This document shows positions 3,725 to 10,927 of a stretch of 64,000 nucleotides of DNA, one piece after another. Source of the DNA: an uncultured Coriobacteriia bacterium (GTDB taxonomy: Bacteria > Actinomycetota > Coriobacteriia > Anaerosomatales > PHET01); contig CAVVUM010000013.1 of NCBI GenBank assembly GCA_963751505.1, positions 4,053-68,052 on the forward strand, written 5' to 3'. The translations under genes were made by a program, and so were the position numbers. Each line of letters opens with the position of its first letter. Position 1 is the first letter of the stretch. The notes under the pieces are model-generated. The model ran no database searches. It was not told the DNA's origin and worked only from the letters and a program-made list of their open reading frames with translations.

Positions 3725-4763
3725 TCAGGACGGCTCGGCGGCCGGACCCGTGACGATCCCCAGATGCGCGCCACAGGCGCTGCACTCCCCGCCCGCACCG
3801 AGTCCGCGCGCCGTCACAGCGTACCCCGTCCGGGCGACCGCGACCGCCCCGCACGCCGGGCACACGGTGTCCTCGCCGCCGGGAACCGATACGTTGCCCA
3901 AGTAGACGTACTTCAACCCCTGCTCGCGCCCGATCTCACGCGCACGCTCGAGCGTCGCGACCGGCGTCGGCGACAGGTGGGCGAACTCGAGATACGGCAC
4001 GAACCGCGTTACGTGCCACGGCGTCTCGGGCCCAAGCGCGCCGCTGATCCAGCGCAGCGATCGCCGAGAGCTCCTCATCGGAGTCGTTGATCGTGGGGAC
4101 CACGTTGGTGACGCACTCGACGTGCATCCCGTGCACGCGCTTGGCCCGCTCGGCCTGCTCCCGCACGGCCTCGGCGTGGCGGACCTTGCACAGCGCACGA
4201 AACGCCTCTTCCGAGAAGCCCTTGATGTCGACGCGCCAGACGTCGATCACTTCTGCGAACAGGTCGAGCCCGGCCGCGGTCACGTAGCCGTTGGTCACCA
4301 TCACGGTATAGAGCCCCGCCGAGCGGGCCGCGCGGGCCGCATCGAGCACCCACTCGAGCCAGATCACCGGCTCGTTGTAGGTGAAGGCGACGCCGGCGCA
4401 GCCGGTCTCCTCGGCAAGCGCGACGACCGAATCGGGGTCGACGAACCGGAGCGGCACCGACCCGTCGTCGCCCTTCGGCCGCGAGATCTGCCAGTTCTGG
4501 CAGTGGCCGCAGCGCATGGAGCAGCCGACCGAGCCGAACGAGAGCACGCGGGTGCCGGGCCGGTAGTGAAAGACCGGCTTCTTCTCGATCGGATCGGCGG
4601 CAAGCGAGCTCACGAGCCCGTAGGTGAGCGCCTTGAGCGAGCCGTCCACGACGCCGCGGGCACCACACACGCCGTGCGCGCCCTCGGCGATGAGGCAGGC
4701 GTGGGGACACAGGCCGCAGCGGATGCGGTCGCCCTCGCGTGACTGCAGGAGTGCCTCGTGCAT
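3725..4763 (-). CDS. amrS: AmmeMemoRadiSam system radical SAM enzyme, frameshifted near 4050
   Basis: N-terminal CxxCPHxC...GxCG, DPIEKKP, GCSMRCGHCQNWQIS (CxxxCxxC), FTYNEP, VTNGY; C-terminal PWHVTRF...YVYLGNV...CPAC. Confidence 0.9.
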
Positions 4764-4811: not shown

Positions 4812-6612
4812 TTACCCAGCCGAGAGCTCGACCCTGTTGCGTCCCGCACGTTTCGCGCGATAGAGCGCCTTGTCGGCGGTGTCCATGAGGTCCGCCGGGT
4901 GAAGGATCCGCTCGCTCACCGCGGCGATGCCCATCGACGAGCTCGTGCGCACGCAGGTCCCGTCCTCGGCATAGATGCCGAGCTGGGCGATGGAGGTGCG
5001 GATCTTCTCGGCGACCGCCCACGCATCGGTCTTGGGGGTGTTCGGCAGGATGAGGGCGAACTCGTCGCCGCCGAAGCGGACCGCGACGTCCGCGGTACGC
5101 AGCTCCGCGTTGAGCAGCACGCCGACCGCGCGCAGCAGCGCGTCGCCGGTGGCGTGCCCGTACTTGTCGTTGATGTCCTTGAACGAGTCGAGGTCCATCA
5201 TCACGAGCGAGAGCGGCGTGTCGTAGCGCCGGGCGCGCGCGACTTCCTCGGCAAGACGACGATCGAATCCGCGCCGGTTGGTGAGCCCGGTGAGCGTGTC
5301 GATGACGGCCGCCTCGACGAGCTGCTCGCGCTCGCGCTCGAGGCGGCGCTTCTGCAGCGGGAAGCACATCTCCCAGGTCGATGCGCCGGCGATGATCGGC
5401 CTCGGCGAGCTCGATGCAGGTGCGGTAGCCGCAGGCGCCGCAGTCGATGGTCTCGGCGCGGCTCTCGAACTCGCCTCGGGCGAGCTCTGCGTCGATCTGG
5501 GCATCGGTCGCCGTGTGGCGCGGCGCCGCGGCGGGCTCGAACGCCCGGTCGAGCGTCACGCCGGGGAGCGCATCGAGCAGCGTCTGGCTGTCGACGAGCG
5601 ACGGGGGCTGACGCCGCCGCTCGGCAGCGTCGATGCCGCGCTTCGCGAACACCGACAGGCAGCGGTTCACGCACGGGCCGTCGATGCAGCCCTCGCAGTT
5701 GAGCATGTCGACGACGGCCGGCGTCGTCTCGCCGCGACCGATCGCGACGAGCAGCCGGTCCAGCTCGGCCAGCCCCCGCGAGACGACGACGTCGCCGTTC
5801 GTGAGGTTACGATCCGTGAGCGCCTTGCGCGGGAAGCCGTCGGTGGCGGAGCGCTCCTTGGTCGCTTGAGGCCGCACCACCTCGCGCTCGGGTGGCGGGG
5901 GCTCCTCGGTCTCGGCAAGCAGCAGCTCGAGCTCGTCGAAGCCGATGGCGACGTCGACGTCACCGCCGGCCGCAGGCTCGAGCGCCTCGTCCTTGCGTGA
6001 CCAGCACGGCGAGACGTAGACGACCGCGGTGTCGTCGGGGTAGAGGGCGCGGATGAGCCGCGCCTGGGCGAGGTAGGGCGACACCACCGGGACGAGCGCG
6101 TCGGCAAGCCCCGGGTGGAAGAAGCGGACCCAGTCGACCGCAACGGGACAGGTGGAGCGCAGCCTCAGCTTGCCGACACCGTCCTCGGCGAGCAGCCGCT
6201 CGTACTCGGCCGCGACGAGCTCCTCGCCGAGCACGGTGGTCTCGACCGCCGAGAACCCCGCGGCGATCAGGCGCCGATCGACCTCCACGGGCGTCATCGG
6301 GTGCAGCGCTGCGACGTATTCGCTCGCAAGCAGCGCGACGACCGGGCGGCCCGAGGCGAGCAGCTGGCGGGCGCGCACAAGGTCGTCGCGGACGCGGATC
6401 GCGTCGTGCCGGCACTCGGTGACGCACAGACCGCACTTCACGCACCGCTCGTCGATGATCTCGCAGCGGCCCTCGATCACGCGGATCGCGTGCGCGGGGC
6501 AGTGACGGACGCACGCCCAGCAGTGGACGCAGGCGTCCTCGTCGATGGCGAGCAGCGGCCCGTGGGGCGCGACAACGCGCGAGAGCCGCAGCTCACGTTC
6601 GGCTTGCGCCAT
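4812..6612 (-). CDS. [FeFe]-hydrogenase-like (group C sensory type) Fe-S domain fused to GGDEF diguanylate cyclase, frameshifted near 5397
   Basis: 2x[4Fe-4S] ferredoxin motifs; H-domain motifs STCP, SPCWSRKDE and DMLNCEGCIDG; C-terminal Fe-S motif DCGACGYRTC...MCFP; then DTLTGLTNRR, FKDINDKYGH and RTADVAVRFGGDEF. Confidence 0.85.
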
Positions 6613-6626
6613 CTAGTCGCCTCCCC

Positions 6627-7193
6627 TCACGAGCGTCTCGCCAGCGCCTCGGCGAGCCCGAGCTTGCGCAGGGCGGCAAGCAGGCCCCAGCCGAGCGTGT
6701 ACATGACCACGGCCTCGCCGACCCCTACCGCGACCACACCCACAAGGTACATTGCCAGCCAGGAACCTTCTACGTCGAACCCAAGTAGAGGCACCTGGTA
6801 GAGGCCGAGCCCCGCAAGCAGGAACGGCAGGTAGGCCGGGACGATGAGTGCGTTGGCGATCACCGGCCCGGCGAGCCCGAGGGGCGTGTTCGCGCGGAAC
6901 CGCCAGGTCCACCAGGCGCCCAGTAGCGTTCCGAGCGAGCCGAAGACCACGTCGAGCAGGCCGAGGGCGTTCCCGGTCGCCGCCACGGTGTAGGCGTTCG
7001 CGATCACCGAGCCCAGCGCCAGCCCTGGGATGGCGGCCGGGGTGAAGAAGGCCACCACCGTGAGGGCCTCGCTGATCCGCAGCTGCAAGAGGCCCCAGGA
7101 GAACACGCCCAGGACCTGGGTGACGACGATCGTGACCGCAGCATAGACGGCGGCGATCATCCCGGCCTGGGTGATGTAGCGGACCCTGCTCAC
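6627..7193 (-). CDS. queT: QueT family queuosine-precursor transporter (ECF S-component)
   Basis: AGMIAAVYAAVT, LQLRISEAL, PAAIPGLALGSVIAN, DVVFGSLGTL and PVIANALIV motifs typical of QueT. Confidence 0.85.
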   Translation of the reverse strand: MSRVRYITQAGMIAAVYAAVTIVVTQVLGVFSWGLLQLRISEALTVVAFFTPAAIPGLALGSVIANAYTVAATGNALGLLDVVFGSLGTLLGAWWTWRFRANTPLGLAGPVIANALIVPAYLPFLLAGLGLYQVPLLGFDVEGSWLAMYLVGVVAVGVGEAVVMYTLGWGLLAALRKLGLAEALARRS

Positions 7194-7275: not shown

Positions 7276-9350
7276 CTATGCGGGCAGCTCGGCGCGACCA
7301 CGCGTGTTCTCCCCCGCGAGCAGCCCCGTCATGCCCGCGAGCGCCATGCGCTCGAGCACCGAGAACAGCGCGACGACGGCCTGCGGATCGAAGCGAGTGC
7401 CGGAGTCCTTCGCGATGGCCCCACGCGCTTGCACGACCGAGAGCCTGCGCGAGCGCCCGCGTCCGGTCGTGAGTGCGTCGTACTCGTCGGCGACGGCAAG
7501 CACGCGTGCGGGTAGCGGGATCGCGGTCCCGGCGAGGCCCTGCGGCCAGCCGTGGCCGTCCCACTGCTCATGGTGGTGTAGCACGATCGGCGTAAGCGAC
7601 TTCAGGAAGTCGATCTGGTCGAGTACCGAGGAGCCCAGTTCGAGTCGCTGGTCCCCGGCGACGATCTCCTCGGCGGTCAGCGATCTGGGCCGCAGCGTGA
7701 TCTCCTCGACGAGCCCGGCACCACCCACATCGTGCAGCAGGCCCGCGAAGCGCAGCTGCTCGAGATCGTCAGCGGACAGCCCGAGTTCATCGCCGATAGC
7801 GAGCGCGAAGTCCATCACCTTGCCCGAGCGACTGTTCACCGACGGCGAGACGCGGTCGAGCGAAGCGGAAAGCGCGGCGATCGTGCCTGCGTAGTCGTCG
7901 CGGATGCGCGTGAACAGCGCCGCCCGCCCGAAGGCCGCTCCCGCGTGCATCGCGATCCCTTCAAGCAGCGCACGGTCCTGCGCGCAGTAGCGCTGCCCGT
8001 CGCTGCGCGCCACGAAGAGCGTGCCGACCGTCAGCTCGCCGTACGAGAACTCGCACGACGCGATCGCCCAGTCGTCGGCGCACTCGGTGGCGGCCGACGC
8101 GTCGCCGACGGTGTTGACCTCGTCGAACGGGTCGCGGGCCAGGTCGCGGCCGGACACGACCCCGAGCACGTGGTCGAGATCGGCCGCCGCGACGGTGCCT
8201 TCGACCATCACGTCGGCGCGGTCCTTGCCCCAGCCCGCGAGCACGGTGCCGGCGACCTCGAAGCCGAAGCCTTGCGAGAGCGCGCCGTTGACGACGCGAG
8301 CGACCTCGGCAGTGTCGGTCTGGCCGCCGAGCAGCGCGGCCAACTCGCTCAGCTGCGCGTAGCCCGCTCATCGCGCGGTCGGCCCGCGCGCGCTCGTCCT
8401 CGCGCTCGAGCGCGATGGCGACGAACTGGGTGAAGCGGCTGAGCCGACTGAGCTGTTCCTTGGGCACCGGCAGGGCCGAGGAGTCGAGCCGCACCTCAAG
8501 GACGCCGACGACCCTCTGGGCGACCAGGAGTGGCATCGCCAGCGTCGAGGTCGTCTTGCTGTTCGTCGGCGCGACGACCGCACGCCGGGTCTCGAATGCC
8601 CGCCCGGACGCGGTCGAGGCGCGCGGGACGATGGCGCCGAGCGGGCCGCGCCACCGCCTCGGTGCGTGCGACGACCTCGAGCTCGGCCCCGTGCGGCCGA
8701 AGCACCGCCCCGGCCTCGCCGCCGATGAGCGCGACCGCCTCCTCGGCGATCGCGCCGAGCGAACCGGAGTCCAGATGCTCGGCCGCGGCGACTTGCGCCC
8801 CGGTCGAGACGAAGAGTTTGAGCTCCTGGACGCGATCGGCAGACGCGATCCGCTCGGCGGTCGCGTCGATGACGGTGACGGCTGTCGAGACGGCAACCTG
8901 CAGGAAGGACTCGGCCTGGCGTCGCGAGACCACCGGCAGCCCCTTGATGGCGCGACGGGCGGCGTCTTCGCCGACACCGCGCACGAGGAGGCGCTCGTAG
9001 AGGCCGCGGCGCTCGCGGGTGGAGGTCACGAAGCCGCCGATGACCACGTGGCCGAGTACCCGTCCGTTGCGCTCGACCGGCGCGAAGAGCGCTGCAAGCC
9101 CCGCGCGACAGACCGCGCGACCCGCCTGCGGGTCGATCGCCTCGTCGAAGCACTGGGCGGGCCCGGGCTCCTCGACGTCGGTCGCGAGATGGCAGCCGGT
9201 GCAGCGCGTTCCCGCGCAGAGCGAACGGACGCCTTCGAAGTCCATGGCGTTGACGGTCACACCGGTCGCCTGGAACAAGGCGTCGGCGGCGCTTCGCCAC
9301 TCTGCAGTGGCGAACGCTCGACCTGCGATGTCGCGGTCGCTGGCTGGCAC
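7276..9350 (-). CDS. PocR-GAF-GAF-HD-GYP signalling protein (degenerate HD-GYP), frameshifted
   Basis: PocR signature (C...QCFD...CRAGLAALFAPV...GHVVIGG), GAF-like LAMPLLVAQRVVGVLEV, LLHDVG and HHHEQWDGHGWP. Joins ORFs 8496..9350, part of 7961..8977 and 7276..8343. Confidence 0.75.
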
Positions 9351-9389
9351 GCAGATACCCCTTTGCGCGATTCATTGCGTTCTCAGGAG

Positions 9390-9418
9390 TTATCGGCGTG
9401 CGCAAGGGCGCCCTTGAG
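9390..9418 (-). promoter_or_regulatory. Sigma28 (FliA/WhiG)-type promoter CTCAAG-N15-GCCGATAA
   Basis: Perfect GCCGATAA -10 element with TCAAG at canonical spacing, 40 nt upstream of the HD-GYP gene. Confidence 0.65.
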
Positions 9419-9442
9419 CAGGGGGAGGCGCGCGCAGCCCCG

Positions 9443-10927
9443 CTAGACGCGACCTCGCGGGACCTCGATGGTGAACATCGTCCCCTGGCCGACGATGCTC
9501 TCGACCGCGATGGTGCCGCCCATGCTGTCGACGATGGTCTTGGCGATGGCCAGACCGAGCCCGAACCCCGCCTCGCCTTCGGCTCGCGCCTTGTCGCTTC
9601 GGAAGAAGCGGTCGAAGACGCGCGGCACGTCCTGCTCGGCTATGCCCTCGCCGCTATCGCTCACCGTGATGATCACCGTGTCGCGGCGTCCGGTCGTCGT
9701 GACGACCACCTGCCCGTGCTCCGGCGTGTACTTACCCGCGTTGTCGAGCAGGATGGAGAGCACGTCTTCGACCCGGTCCGGGTCGCCGATCATGACCAGC
9801 GACTCCTCTTCGGGACCGACGAACTCGATGTCCTTGTCGAGGTAGCGGCTGGCGGTGGTCGCCAATCGCTCTCGGGCCACCACGTTCAGGTCGAACCGCT
9901 CGGCGGCAAGCACGAGCCCTTGATCGGCGTGAAGCAGGTTGAGCAGGTCGCTCGAAAGGCGCGCCATCCGTCGCGACTCGCGGTCGATCGCGTCGATCGC
10001 CTCCTCGCGTACCTTGACGTCCTCGCCGCCCCACGCGCGCAGGATCGAGGTGTAGCCGCGGATGCCCGCGACCGGCGTCGCAAGCTCGTGCGAAGCGTCT
10101 GCCACGAAACGGCTCTGCGCCTCGGCTCTGCGCTGGAGCCGACCGATGAGCCGGTTGATGGAGCGAGCGAGCTCGCCGACCTCGTTGCGGGCCTCGTCGG
10201 GCAGCCGCTCATCGAGCCGCCCCGCATCAATGGAGTCGGCGGCCTTGCGCAGGTCGTCGACGAGGTTCAGGACCCACGCCATCGAGGTCTGCATGAGCAC
10301 GACCATGATGAGCATCGCCGAGAACGCCAGAATCGCCATCGGCACGCGGATGGCGTCGATGACGTTCGTCTCGCTCTCCGGCACGTAGGTCACATCCAGC
10401 ACGCCAGTGCGTCCGCCGGGCAGGCTGAGCGGGTTGTGGACGACCGTGGCCCCGAGCTGGGCCTGCCTGAACAGGCCCGCAAGCAGACCGCCGTTCGACA
10501 GATTCGAGAAGGTCGGGGTGCCGGTCTGCGCGGCCTGGCTGCGCTTGATGAGCTGCGCCGGATGGATGGCCTCGGGGCTCGAACTCCAGAAGACCTCGGG
10601 GCCGTCCTCATAGATGGCGAACTCGGCATCCGTGAGCCCGGCCTCTTCGAGCAGCGCGCTCAGGCGCTTGCCGAGAATCTGGTCGGCCTCCGCGATCTTC
10701 CGGTCGCTTCCCAGGCCACGCGCCTCGGCACGGGCCTCGGCCTGAGCGGCAGCCTCCTCGATCGCGGCCACCGCGGCGGTCGCCTCGCGCTGGGCGGTGT
10801 CGAACGCCACGACGCGCATGCCGTCGGCGACGATGATGTAGGTGGTGAGCGCAACGCCGCCCACGACGAGCACCGCGAACAGCACCGAGACGATGAGCAG
10901 CCAGCCCCGTAGTGACAGCCTGCCCAT
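9443..10927 (-). CDS. HAMP-domain sensor histidine kinase
   Basis: Two TM helices, HAMP domain, FVADASHELATP H-box, LLDNAGKY N-box, DSGEGI and GFGLGLAI G-boxes. Confidence 0.95.
   Translation of the reverse strand: MGRLSLRGWLLIVSVLFAVLVVGGVALTTYIIVADGMRVVAFDTAQREATAAVAAIEEAAAQAEARAEARGLGSDRKIAEADQILGKRLSALLEEAGLTDAEFAIYEDGPEVFWSSSPEAIHPAQLIKRSQAAQTGTPTFSNLSNGGLLAGLFRQAQLGATVVHNPLSLPGGRTGVLDVTYVPESETNVIDAIRVPMAILAFSAMLIMVVLMQTSMAWVLNLVDDLRKAADSIDAGRLDERLPDEARNEVGELARSINRLIGRLQRRAEAQSRFVADASHELATPVAGIRGYTSILRAWGGEDVKVREEAIDAIDRESRRMARLSSDLLNLLHADQGLVLAAERFDLNVVARERLATTASRYLDKDIEFVGPEEESLVMIGDPDRVEDVLSILLDNAGKYTPEHGQVVVTTTGRRDTVIITVSDSGEGIAEQDVPRVFDRFFRSDKARAEGEAGFGLGLAIAKTIVDSMGGTIAVESIVGQGTMFTIEVPRGRV

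Follow-up and report, generated by a model that had tools for sequence, protein, structure and literature searches.

An [FeFe]-hydrogenase-like iron–sulphur scaffold fused to a diguanylate cyclase in anaerobic Coriobacteriia, a candidate redox or oxygen sensor

On the minus strand of a 64,000-nucleotide stretch of DNA from an uncultured Coriobacteriia bacterium (the whole of which is referred to here as the window), positions 6612-4812 encode a protein in which two [4Fe-4S] motifs, the H-domain of [FeFe] hydrogenases and a Cx2Cx4Cx16C cluster are followed by a 20-residue helix and an intact GGDEF domain. We propose that this cytoplasmic, single-gene system is probably an Fe-S-only sensor of redox state or oxygen that controls the synthesis of c-di-GMP. 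Redox state or oxygen is more likely to be sensed than hydrogen, because the carriers of the gene are without the known machinery for making a hydrogen-splitting centre. The gene, its parts and its neighbours are laid out in the window as follows.

3725..4763, minus strand: AmmeMemoRadiSam-type radical SAM gene, 48 nt downstream, frame-broken near 4058 (TIGR04337)
4812..6612, minus strand: hydrogenase-like Fe-S diguanylate cyclase, whole gene, in two frames here (open reading frames, Pfam, homologues)
4833..5309, minus strand: GGDEF diguanylate cyclase domain with GGDEF motif and RxxD I-site (PF00990)
5310..5363, minus strand: linker helix, from the last cluster cysteine to the GGDEF domain (AlphaFold2 model of the relative P0024)
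5364..5442, minus strand: C-terminal Cx2Cx4Cx16C [4Fe-4S] motif of PF04060 type, split by the frame break (sequence, Pfam, homologue)
5397..5397, minus strand: one extra base, frame-shifting (sequence, contigs of relatives, codon-usage Viterbi)
5674..6345, minus strand: H-domain of [FeFe] hydrogenases (PF02906, Foldseek, HMMER residue mapping, conservation)
6388..6549, minus strand: N-terminal F-domain with two ferredoxin-type [4Fe-4S] motifs (Fer4 families, residues 22-75)
6627..7193, minus strand: QueT-family transporter gene, 14 nt upstream (PF06177), adjacent in 12/12 loci
7276..9350, minus strand: PocR-GAF-HD-GYP c-di-GMP phosphodiesterase gene, in pieces (Pfam), adjacent in 8/12 loci

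As it stands in the window the gene is read in two frames: frame A (6612..5398) carries the two Fer4 motifs, PF02906 and the start of the PF04060 FeS domain, and frame B (5396..4812) carries the remainder of the cysteine motif and PF00990. Read through, the product would be about 600 amino acids long, and full-length one-frame homologues have 588-625. The F-domain contributes cysteines 28, 31, 34 and 38 and cysteines 57, 60, 63 and 67, all eight invariant in the 83 rows of alignment A3, and the H-domain match (PF02906, Fe_hyd_lg_C, frame A, residues 90-313) scores 88.5 bits against a cut-off of 22.1 and encloses Cys155, Cys203, Cys306 and Cys309. In the AlphaFold2 model of P0024, a full-length relative, a helix at residues 415-434 begins directly after Cys414, with a mean pLDDT of 89-92 for the 10-residue blocks of residues 411-440. 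The GGDEF domain is matched in frame B over the entire profile (PF00990, 163.3 bits, profile positions 1-161 of 161), its I-site reads R-T-A-D and is separated by five residues from the GGDEF motif, and the GGDEF and RxxD columns are at least 90% conserved among homologues. Synthesis of c-di-GMP is accordingly a prediction from PF00990, the intact GGDEF motif and the RxxD site. Pfam returned no PAS domain at E ≤ 0.01 in either frame. A first-pass annotation, made from the letters of the DNA and their open reading frames, had given the same order of domains, including the short helix and the missing PAS, and had placed the protein in an actinobacterium; open reading frames, Pfam and the P0024 model agree with the former and the host's lineage with the latter, and the motifs it named (RSTCP, SPCWSRKDE, DMLNCEGC, ASE, and RxxD upstream of GGDEF) are all found in the sequence.

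The fold is that of a hydrogenase. An AlphaFold2 model of the 405-residue N-terminal part (pLDDT 89.8, pTM 0.90) has [FeFe] hydrogenases as its best PDB matches in Foldseek, with E from 1e-17 to 1e-13 and TM 0.60-0.68 (CbA5H, 8zqd, E 9.5e-18). The NCBIfam cut-offs for hydrogenases are not reached (TIGR04105, 120 vs 450 bits; TIGR02512, 52 vs 406; NF040763, 42 vs 765). Canonical signalling-type sequences are the nearest kin by sequence, and a branch with 100% support parts the clan of the present protein from 60 of them in an unrooted FastTree phylogeny made without labelled TmHydS or TamHydS. Among the nearest relatives outside the clan the outputs are HisKA/HATPase (25 of 71), PAS, sigma-54 (four) and MCP (three). 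The protein has the layout of the group C and D enzymes, with N-terminal 2x[4Fe-4S], H-domain and C-terminal Cx2Cx4Cx16C, and has neither the PAS domain that follows the C-terminal cluster in group C nor the bare end of group D, the GGDEF domain following a 20-residue helix instead. Group C and D enzymes are often encoded alongside one of group A, and this pairing too is absent, as the neighbours are the QueT, HD-GYP and radical SAM genes and PF02906 has a single match in each of the five genomes concerned, those of the window and of four relatives (G000, G077, G051, G003 and G143); with a single match per genome, there is therefore no catalytic [FeFe] hydrogenase to regulate.

Within the window's order of anaerobic Coriobacteriia the gene is near-universal and single-copy, the fusion being present in 103 of 112 genomes, and it also occurs in several other anaerobic families of Actinomycetota. 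One clan representative has a named taxon, which is Actinomycetota. A search for loci with P0140 returned 80, all matched in the GGDEF part only (query residues about 370-612).

The four H-cluster cysteines that the first reading of the sequence had taken to be retained (C155, C203, C306 and C309) are invariant in all 121 homologues, and among them is the cysteine that forms the bridge to [2Fe] in hydrogenases. All 16 cluster cysteines are invariant in 83 of 83 rows, among sequences that share no more than 32-39% identity with P0024, the reference row, and we therefore argue that all four clusters matter. Around the H-site the picture is different. HMMER alignments to solved hydrogenases put Glu98, Arg152, Thr154, Ser201, Arg206 and Leu304 at or near positions of the CpI diiron cavity (for this residue mapping the bare H-domain was aligned to PDB sequences with phmmer, reaching only E 0.029). 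The position of S232 (CpI numbering) is Glu98, and is Glu in 121/121 family rows, 10/11 clan representatives and 25/25 phylum loci, against Ser, Ala or Thr in 60/60 canonical signalling-type relatives. The position of K358 is Arg206, with Arg in 121/121 family rows and Arg, Ala or Gln across the clan, Lys being kept in two of 11 clan representatives and two of 25 phylum loci vs 55 of 60 canonical relatives; Arg stands there in three of the 60 canonical sequences. Of these two residues, K358 is in hydrogenases the one in contact with the distal CN, and S232 belongs, with A230 and P231, to the lining of the cavity (PMC10147833). The proton-relay cysteine is lost (Cys299 is Thr154) and both methionines are exchanged (M353 is Ser201, M497 is Leu304). 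The remodelled pocket proposed by the first-pass annotation thus stands in part: ASE and the change of Lys to Arg are specific to the clan and, judged by sequence, are the two changed cavity residues that mark it as separate, whereas the CxxC spacing of DMLNC-EGC, together with the lost first cysteine of TSCCP, is common to all 60 canonical signalling-type relatives. The CxxC spacing and a single cysteine in L1 are indeed described as traits of groups C and D (PMC8163306).

Three charged residues, Glu98, Arg152 and Arg206, are invariant and map to the cavity or close to it, and there is some chance, though we consider it doubtful, that the charged cavity they form is a working site rather than a plug, which might hold another cofactor such as [2Fe-2S] or a diiron centre made independently of HydEFG. 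If so, the protein would represent a novel type of sensor for a gas or small molecule, perhaps H2, with an easily measured c-di-GMP output.

None of the order's 113 genomes, 98 of them with a completeness of 90% or more, has HydG, HydF or HydE above the cut-off, and the genome of the window itself (59% complete), in which a search for hydEFG had been advised, has none of the three. HydG and HydF are likewise absent from 30 further actinobacterial carriers, which makes 143 genomes of carrier lineages without these two (the HydE search covered the 113 from the order), though HydG is readily found in sister orders, where 14 of the 301 genomes of the class, all from other orders, have it at 673-911 bits and serve as a positive control. 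A true H2 sensor, in which an H-cluster or a related diiron centre is assembled by some HydEFG-independent route and H2 controls c-di-GMP, is for this reason unlikely, and the cavity speaks in the same direction, as most of the clan no longer has the CN-contacting lysine of K358 and S232 is Glu, whilst canonical relatives keep both; moreover the clan representatives P0183 and P0213 have lost the H-site cysteines altogether. Missing HydEFG is nevertheless no proof of a missing diiron centre, because there are precedents: most archaea with [FeFe] hydrogenases are without maturases, the full set being present in 5/130, and an alternative maturation route has been proposed for them, whilst some maturase-less eukaryotes still produce H2 (PMC11216029). 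The invariant H-site cysteines and an architecture shared with groups C and D, to which the H-cluster-binding TmHydS and TamHydS belong, also favour hydrogen, and [NiFe(Se)] hydrogenases occur in all five relatives checked, so H2 matters to these organisms and is part of their metabolism.

Some details of the H-site sit awkwardly with an Fe-S-only protein. All four cysteines are kept, with the [2Fe]-bridging one among them, an arginine could still bond a CN ligand, and the Ser at M353 and Leu at M497 are exactly those of the H2-active TamHydS (PMC8163306).

Of the two alternatives left side by side by the first-pass annotation, an H2-controlled cyclase and a [4Fe-4S]-only sensor, we favour the second on account of the absent maturases (113 + 30 genomes) and the cavity changes. 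In such a sensor of redox state or oxygen, the sensing part would be built as in the 'sensory' [FeFe] hydrogenases of groups C and D, carrying four clusters (the two N-terminal [4Fe-4S], the [4Fe-4S] site of the H-domain and the C-terminal Cx2Cx4Cx16C) and presumably no diiron subcluster. The signal would be the redox state or the integrity of this four-cluster chain, which may be set by a low-potential donor such as ferredoxin or damaged by O2, NO or other oxidants. From the C-terminal cluster this signal would travel along the 20-residue helix into the GGDEF domain, where it would govern how fast c-di-GMP is made. Product inhibition would be added by the I-site, and the opposing activity may come from the PocR-GAF-HD-GYP phosphodiesterase two genes upstream, a gene that in the window switches frame at 8367 and 8648 and whose homologue in the relative's locus L023 is a single 694-aa open reading frame with PocR, GAF and HD_5. 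For the putative sensory [FeFe] hydrogenases of groups C and D, recent work on TamHydS casts doubt on the C-terminal-cluster route, which is the obvious one: the redox state of that cluster is unchanged by H2, and its authors doubt signalling by redox change (PMC13104023). The read-out step proposed here is therefore tentative even for the closest proteins that have been studied.

A scaffold role fits part of the same evidence. The clusters could serve folding, dimerisation, or the binding of a partner or ligand in the altered cavity, with the cyclase under the control of that partner, that ligand or the I-site alone; the three invariant charged residues suit a binding site as well as they suit a plug, and a [2Fe-2S] cluster has been proposed in the same cavity of Nar1 (PMC12621388). 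The radical SAM gene, adjacent in 12/12 loci of the order and in 6/23 loci of other classes with enough downstream sequence, is also in its favour. This gene is in two pieces in the window, matched by TIGR04337 at profile positions 5-231 and 229-329, and intact in L023 (339 aa, 312 bits vs a cut-off of 220). We regard a mere scaffold as quite unlikely all the same, as it leaves the 16 cysteines, invariant at such low identity, poorly accounted for, the radical SAM protein is a regular AmmeMemoRadiSam member with AMMECR1 genes elsewhere in the genomes, and the QueT gene is equally syntenic without any obvious link. The radical SAM protein was considered as a dedicated maturase too, and set aside on the same two grounds of its regular membership and the AMMECR1 genes elsewhere.

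The frame break itself is likely an assembly indel, and a one-base assembly error is the best explanation for the gene being read in two frames here. The sequence reads GAG GCC G up to the break and ATC ATC after it, splitting the Cx2Cx4Cx16C motif, and a codon-usage Viterbi path changes frame at 5396. The same stretch is in a single frame in P0001 (96% identical), and three metagenome contigs, two from run X2 and one from run X3, are without one base at 5397/5398. In all twelve loci of relatives the H-domain and GGDEF matches abut in a manner consistent with one frame (in L023, from a complete relative, as one 597-aa open reading frame at 8228-10021), and PF02906 and PF00990 lie within one protein in 119/120 homologues among the matches listed. 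The suspicion of an indel near 5397, and of a fusion across it, was thus well founded. A real frameshift, making the gene a pseudogene in this strain or leaving a truncated Fe-S protein without cyclase, has the extra base of the window sequence in its favour, and no public sequencing run was found with half or more of the window's words (best share 0.12), the source genome being 59% complete; runs X1 and X6 reach a depth of 7.7 at the site and show no deletion, though no listed X1 or X6 piece bridges it. It would, however, cut through a four-cysteine cluster motif that the closest relatives keep in frame. Same-strand frame switches that involve no stop number 45 in the 64 kb of the window vs 17 in 215 kb for the twelve loci of relatives, a density about 9x higher, and the radical SAM, DsbA-like and HD-GYP genes nearby are broken as well, which together argue for assembly error and not selective loss and make a real frameshift improbable. 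The two open reading frames listed in the window might suggest a genuine pair of genes, one for an H-domain Fe-S protein and the other for a free-standing cyclase; we reject this reading as scarcely credible, since the break lies inside the cysteine motif, the ATG of frame B stands 108 nt upstream of the break with its first ~36 residues an out-of-frame overlap with frame A, and the intact relatives are all fused.

The clan couples the scaffold of the sensory hydrogenases, via one helix, to an easily measured product, and would thereby give a direct read-out of what that scaffold senses. Known inputs to c-di-GMP signalling include haem, flavin and hemerythrin. If the protein carries no diiron centre, an Fe-S input would be added to these, and the clan would be a bacterial counterpart of Nar1 in which the H-domain has been turned to the Fe-S-based sensing of redox state or oxygen. 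If a diiron centre is present, the lineage would have a HydEFG-free maturation route, a question already raised for archaea (PMC11216029).

A literature search returned no paper on a hydrogenase-like or H-cluster protein with a GGDEF domain, none of the titles listed for Fe-S proteins and diguanylate cyclases pointed to one, and the supplementary tables of PMC11216029 and PMC5037454 may list such sequences. Among described proteins TamHydS of Thermoanaerobacter mathranii (a putative sensory enzyme of group D, M2e) is close in its H-site, with Cys299 lost, Ser at M353 and Leu at M497 (PMC8163306). It accepts [2Fe]adt and is active in H2 turnover, ends without a fused output domain and is encoded upstream of a group A hydrogenase. 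The present protein differs from it in the fused GGDEF domain, in the Glu at S232, the Arg at K358 and the new Arg152, and in belonging to a lineage without HydEFG and without a second PF02906 gene. TmHydS of Thermotoga maritima (putative sensory, group C, M2f) and the HydDB group C subtypes, C1-C3, resemble it in the order of their modules, in which the C-terminal cluster is immediately followed by a signalling domain, and differ in that the output here is a GGDEF domain without PAS. To our knowledge none of HydDB's three group C subtypes is a cyclase. The three are described as being transcribed with different regulatory elements (PMC5037454).

The likeness proposed to Nar1/CIAO3 is one of working mode. 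Nar1 is described as having an H-domain but no [2Fe]H, and its clusters break down quickly in O2 (PMC12621388). It would share with our protein a retained [4Fe-4S] site and the want of both [2Fe]H and maturases, but it acts in eukaryotic Fe-S assembly, as a CIA factor that binds the CIA targeting complex, lacks any signalling output and has another N-terminal cluster site. The [NiFe] group 2c hydrogenases, entered in HydDB as 'diguanylate cyclase-linked (putative)' in the one mention of such a cyclase there (PMC5037454), follow the logic proposed here of a hydrogenase-type sensor feeding c-di-GMP; they are an unrelated metalloprotein family, linked by gene rather than fused, and the link is putative. 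Closest in architecture are P0144 and P0147, which have the same order of 2x[4Fe-4S], H-domain, FeS and GGDEF but fall on the canonical side of the tree, with Ala-Pro-Ser and Lys still in place at the two positions of the cavity, and these two proteins appear from their residues to be better candidates than the clan for real H2-controlled cyclases.

The fusion gene lies on the minus strand and is read in two frames:

start ATG at 6612, (-): first frame of the fusion, with two ferredoxin-type [4Fe-4S] motifs, the H-domain and a partial cluster motif
residues 90-313, (-): H-domain of [FeFe] hydrogenase (PF02906, 88.5 bits)
first frame after the H-domain, (-): Cys one to three of a cluster motif of the PF04060 type (Pfam and ORF reading)
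5396 to stop at 4812, (-): second frame, with the rest of the cluster motif and its fourth Cys, then a full GGDEF domain

Past residue 405 the first frame is low-complexity Arg/Ala text. The GGDEF domain (PF00990, 163.3 bits) shows its GGDEF motif, with an RxxD site five residues before it; a Pfam search at E ≤ 0.01 found no PAS domain in either piece. The chain has four four-cysteine cluster sites. All 16 Cys are kept in each of 83 sequences, down to those 32-39% identical to the reference row. An AlphaFold2 model of the 405-residue N-terminal part, built on an alignment of 121 homologues (the family), reached pLDDT 89.8 and pTM 0.90, and its best PDB matches in Foldseek were all [FeFe] hydrogenases (CbA5H, DdH, CpI and HydABC; E 1e-17 to 1e-13, TM 0.60-0.68, identity 16-22%). 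In the predicted model of a full-length relative, P0024 (597 aa; pLDDT 90.3, pTM 0.76), a 20-residue helix (415-434) begins one residue past the last cluster Cys and runs into the GGDEF domain. The cyclase, with its I-site, is predicted from sequence and models to be catalytically complete and joined to the last cluster by one helix. ORFs, Pfam and model together reproduce the module order of the first-pass annotation (two [4Fe-4S] motifs, H-domain, Cys cluster, helix, intact GGDEF with RxxD), which had also noted the lack of a PAS domain.

The junction DNA reads GAG GCC G|ATC ATC, so one extra base at 5397 splits the Cx2Cx4Cx16C motif. P0001, the closest database protein (96% identical), reads the same stretch in a single frame, and PF02906 and PF00990 occur in one protein of ~540-640 aa in 119 of the 120 best homologues listed, the lone exception, P0076, being a 398-aa piece that ends within the Cys motif. 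The two matches abut in all 12 relatives' loci, consistent with one frame, and in one of these, L023, form a single ORF of 597 aa. None of the public runs searched holds the window's strain (best share of words 0.12); among contigs from four runs aligned to the window at ≥85% likeness, three bridge the site without one base at 5397/5398 (two from run X2, one from X3; depth 3-4.5 each, ~93-95% alike), while runs X1 and X6 show depth 7.7 at the site with no deletion and no listed piece bridging it. In the 64-kb window, our own codon-usage Viterbi scan, whose false-positive rate is known from the relatives' loci control alone, counted 45 frame switches that stay on the same strand and have no stop nearby (47 in its first version); the relatives' loci gave 17 in 215 kb, or about 0.7 per kb against 0.08 per kb in the 12 loci. 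Assemblies with many indel errors typically look like this. Switch sites include 5396, 4058 and 3273, the neighbouring radical SAM gene is split at a switch site (confirmed by Pfam and NCBIfam), and many genes of the window will appear split. The break is very probably an assembly indel in an organism that carries the intact gene; the fusion proposed across it is upheld by P0001, the listed homologues and the three in-frame contigs.

A HMMER pass of the 256-residue H-domain against 1.84 billion representatives gave 1267 matches at E ≤ 1e-3, and beyond the family identity falls to 26-45%, a few short fragments aside. We profiled 71 of the 130 listed non-family representatives, namely those of at least 400 aa among P0140-P0225. 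All 71 carry PF02906, 66 PF04060 and 25 HisKA with HATPase, and other outputs are PAS families (9-13), GGDEF (12), sigma-54 activator (4) and MCP signalling domain (3), which places the nearest kin of the fusion in the signalling-linked group C/D type. Residues were mapped through HMMER alignments to solved hydrogenases, in CpI numbering:

Thr154: C299 position
Cys155: C300 position
Ser201: M353 position
Cys203: C355 position
Arg206: K358 position
Leu304: M497 position
Cys306 and Cys309: C499 and C503 positions, with one residue fewer between
Ala96-Ser97-Glu98: Ala-Pro-Ala position of CbA5H, which we take to be CpI A230-P231-S232

Sixty signalling-type relatives with the usual cavity residues (canonical relatives) likewise have only one Cys in L1 and show CxGC spacing. 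In groups C and D, C299 is missing and both M353 and M497 are replaced, and TamHydS, a studied group D sensory hydrogenase, has the same Ser and Leu at the latter two positions as the fusion (PMC8163306); none of these changes is therefore a remodelling peculiar to the fusion. Three positions are peculiar to the family and to the clan, which adds more distant relatives with an altered cavity:

Residues at the three positions in the family, 11 clan representatives, 25 phylum loci from outside the class and 60 canonical relatives
98 (S232): family Glu 121/121; clan Glu 10/11; phylum Glu 25/25; canonical Ser 53, Ala 5, Thr 2
152: family Arg 121/121; clan Arg 11/11; phylum Arg 25/25; canonical Arg 0/60
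206 (K358): family Arg 121/121; clan Lys 2/11; phylum Lys 2/25; canonical Lys 55, Arg 3

Clan members without Lys at 206 have Ala, Gln, Met, His, Val, Trp, Gly or Glu. The distal CN ligand of the diiron site is in contact with K358, and A230, P231 and S232 line the cavity around the site (PMC10147833). By its residues, the pocket has lost the distal-cyanide-contacting side chain and changed one cavity-lining residue. Of the remodelled diiron pocket first noted, Glu98 (ASE) and the Lys-to-Arg change at 206 do set the family apart, whereas the CxGC spacing is shared with canonical relatives. In a quick, unrooted FastTree tree of 102 rows (31 of the 121 family rows, taken at every fourth, with 11 clan representatives and the 60 canonical relatives, without labelled reference enzymes), a branch with 100% local support separates the canonical relatives from family and clan. 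P0144 and P0147, GGDEF-linked with a canonical Ala-Pro-Ser and Lys pocket, fall inside the canonical side, so that the GGDEF fusion arose more than once, and these two may be real H2-responsive cyclases. Two clan representatives, P0183 and P0213, keep the Glu/Arg/Thr signature with the H-site Cys replaced by Ser, Gly, Tyr or Phe, Asp or Thr, which indicates that the [4Fe-4S] site is dispensable in some lineages.

Those homologues that have names stem from MAGs of Coriobacteriia, where the annotation says no more than diguanylate cyclase; the window's own MAG has 1.28 Mb in 13 contigs and is 59% complete. Among 301 sampled genomes of the class, the H-domain occurs in 103 of 112 from the window's order, nearly always as a single match, and in 1 of 188 from other orders, as a different protein (30% identical). 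Among 401 sampled genomes of the phylum, 30 outside the class have a match (families f33, f46, f52, f69, f81 and others). We examined 25 of these loci: all have signature residues of the Glu98/Arg152 type, 23 show the GGDEF motif by pattern match, and 24 have a GGDEF-domain match after the H-domain (tblastn), the exception lying on a cut contig.

Curated profiles for the diiron-centre maturases (HydG TIGR03955, HydF TIGR03918, HydE TIGR03956) gave no match over cut-off in 113 genomes of the order, 98 of them at least 90% complete. HydG-like scores peaked at 160-190 bits, with the cut-off at 312. The search for hydEFG likewise found none of the three in the window's incomplete genome, extending their reported absence from the window. 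HydG did exceed its cut-off in 14 of the 301 class genomes (673-911 bits, all other orders), so the search works on these genomes; HydG and HydF exceeded theirs in none of the 30 carriers outside the class. The window's genome and four relatives have one PF02906 match each, and hence no catalytic [FeFe] hydrogenase. The absence of maturases should not be over-read, since the three occur together in only 5 of 130 archaeal genomes that encode [FeFe] hydrogenases, a case in which the authors argue for an alternative pathway (PMC11216029), and since [NiFe(Se)] hydrogenases occur in 5 of 5 relatives checked, making H2 part of their life. The [NiFe] large-subunit genes (520-570 bits; G077:C1:18564-20045, with equivalents in G051, G175, G003 and G143) have one in-frame TGA each, as expected of selenocysteine [NiFeSe] enzymes. 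G064 belongs to a different order of the class and is 100% complete. Its two strong PF02906 genes (314 and 216 bits; G064:C14:41295-42155 and G064:C4:39224-39934) come with no match to HydG or HydE in the genome and a HydF score of 83 bits against a cut-off of 326; they are either hydrogenases without known maturases or further hydrogenase-like proteins.

The neighbouring genes run head to tail on the minus strand, with gaps of 6-62 nt in the intact L023:

L023 10662-12746: PocR-GAF-HD-GYP phosphodiesterase, 694 aa
L023: QueT, 187 aa
L023: fusion, 597 aa
L023: AmmeMemoRadiSam radical SAM enzyme, 339 aa (312 bits, cut-off 220)
L023: DsbA-like protein, 245 aa

In all 12 loci from the order, QueT, fusion and radical SAM gene are neighbours, and the HD-GYP gene is adjacent in 8, suggesting from gene order that phosphodiesterase and fusion form a cyclase/phosphodiesterase pair. 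The window's copy of the PocR-GAF-HD-GYP gene (7276-9350, minus strand) is split over two or more ORFs, its frame switching at 8367 and 8648. The AmmeMemoRadiSam gene (3725-4763, minus strand) is directly downstream of the fusion. Of 23 loci outside the class that extend far enough downstream, 6 have a radical SAM gene after the fusion (L125, L126, L134, L135, L141 and L144). A dedicated maturase in this position was considered and set aside, because AMMECR1, the usual partner of AmmeMemoRadiSam, is encoded elsewhere in the genomes. Two AMMECR1 matches (G077:C1:2251951-2252442 and G175:C12:56487-56978) lie in open frames with one in-frame TAG each.

We propose that the H-site would hold only its [4Fe-4S] cluster and that the signal would be the redox state or integrity of the cluster chain; a ferredoxin-type donor would set it, or O2 or NO would abolish it. 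Because electrons usually enter hydrogenases through such an N-terminal two-cluster domain (PMC8163306), we prefer a wired redox sensor to a switch that is simply O2-labile. The read-out is the weakest step of this mechanism; in TamHydS, H2 left the C-terminal cluster unchanged, and the authors question whether it signals by redox change (PMC13104023).

In HydDB (PMC5037454), [NiFe] group 2c is the only one listed as linked to a cyclase, and group C is divided into three subtypes. No description of an H-domain fused to GGDEF was found in the literature searched. To our knowledge none of the three group C subtypes is a cyclase, and 'diguanylate' is absent from the main text of a 2024 survey of groups A-G. 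On the scaffold of group C/D sensory hydrogenases, the fusion combines a new output, GGDEF, with an altered cavity, in a lineage without maturases; it probably works like Nar1, an H-domain protein without [2Fe]H.
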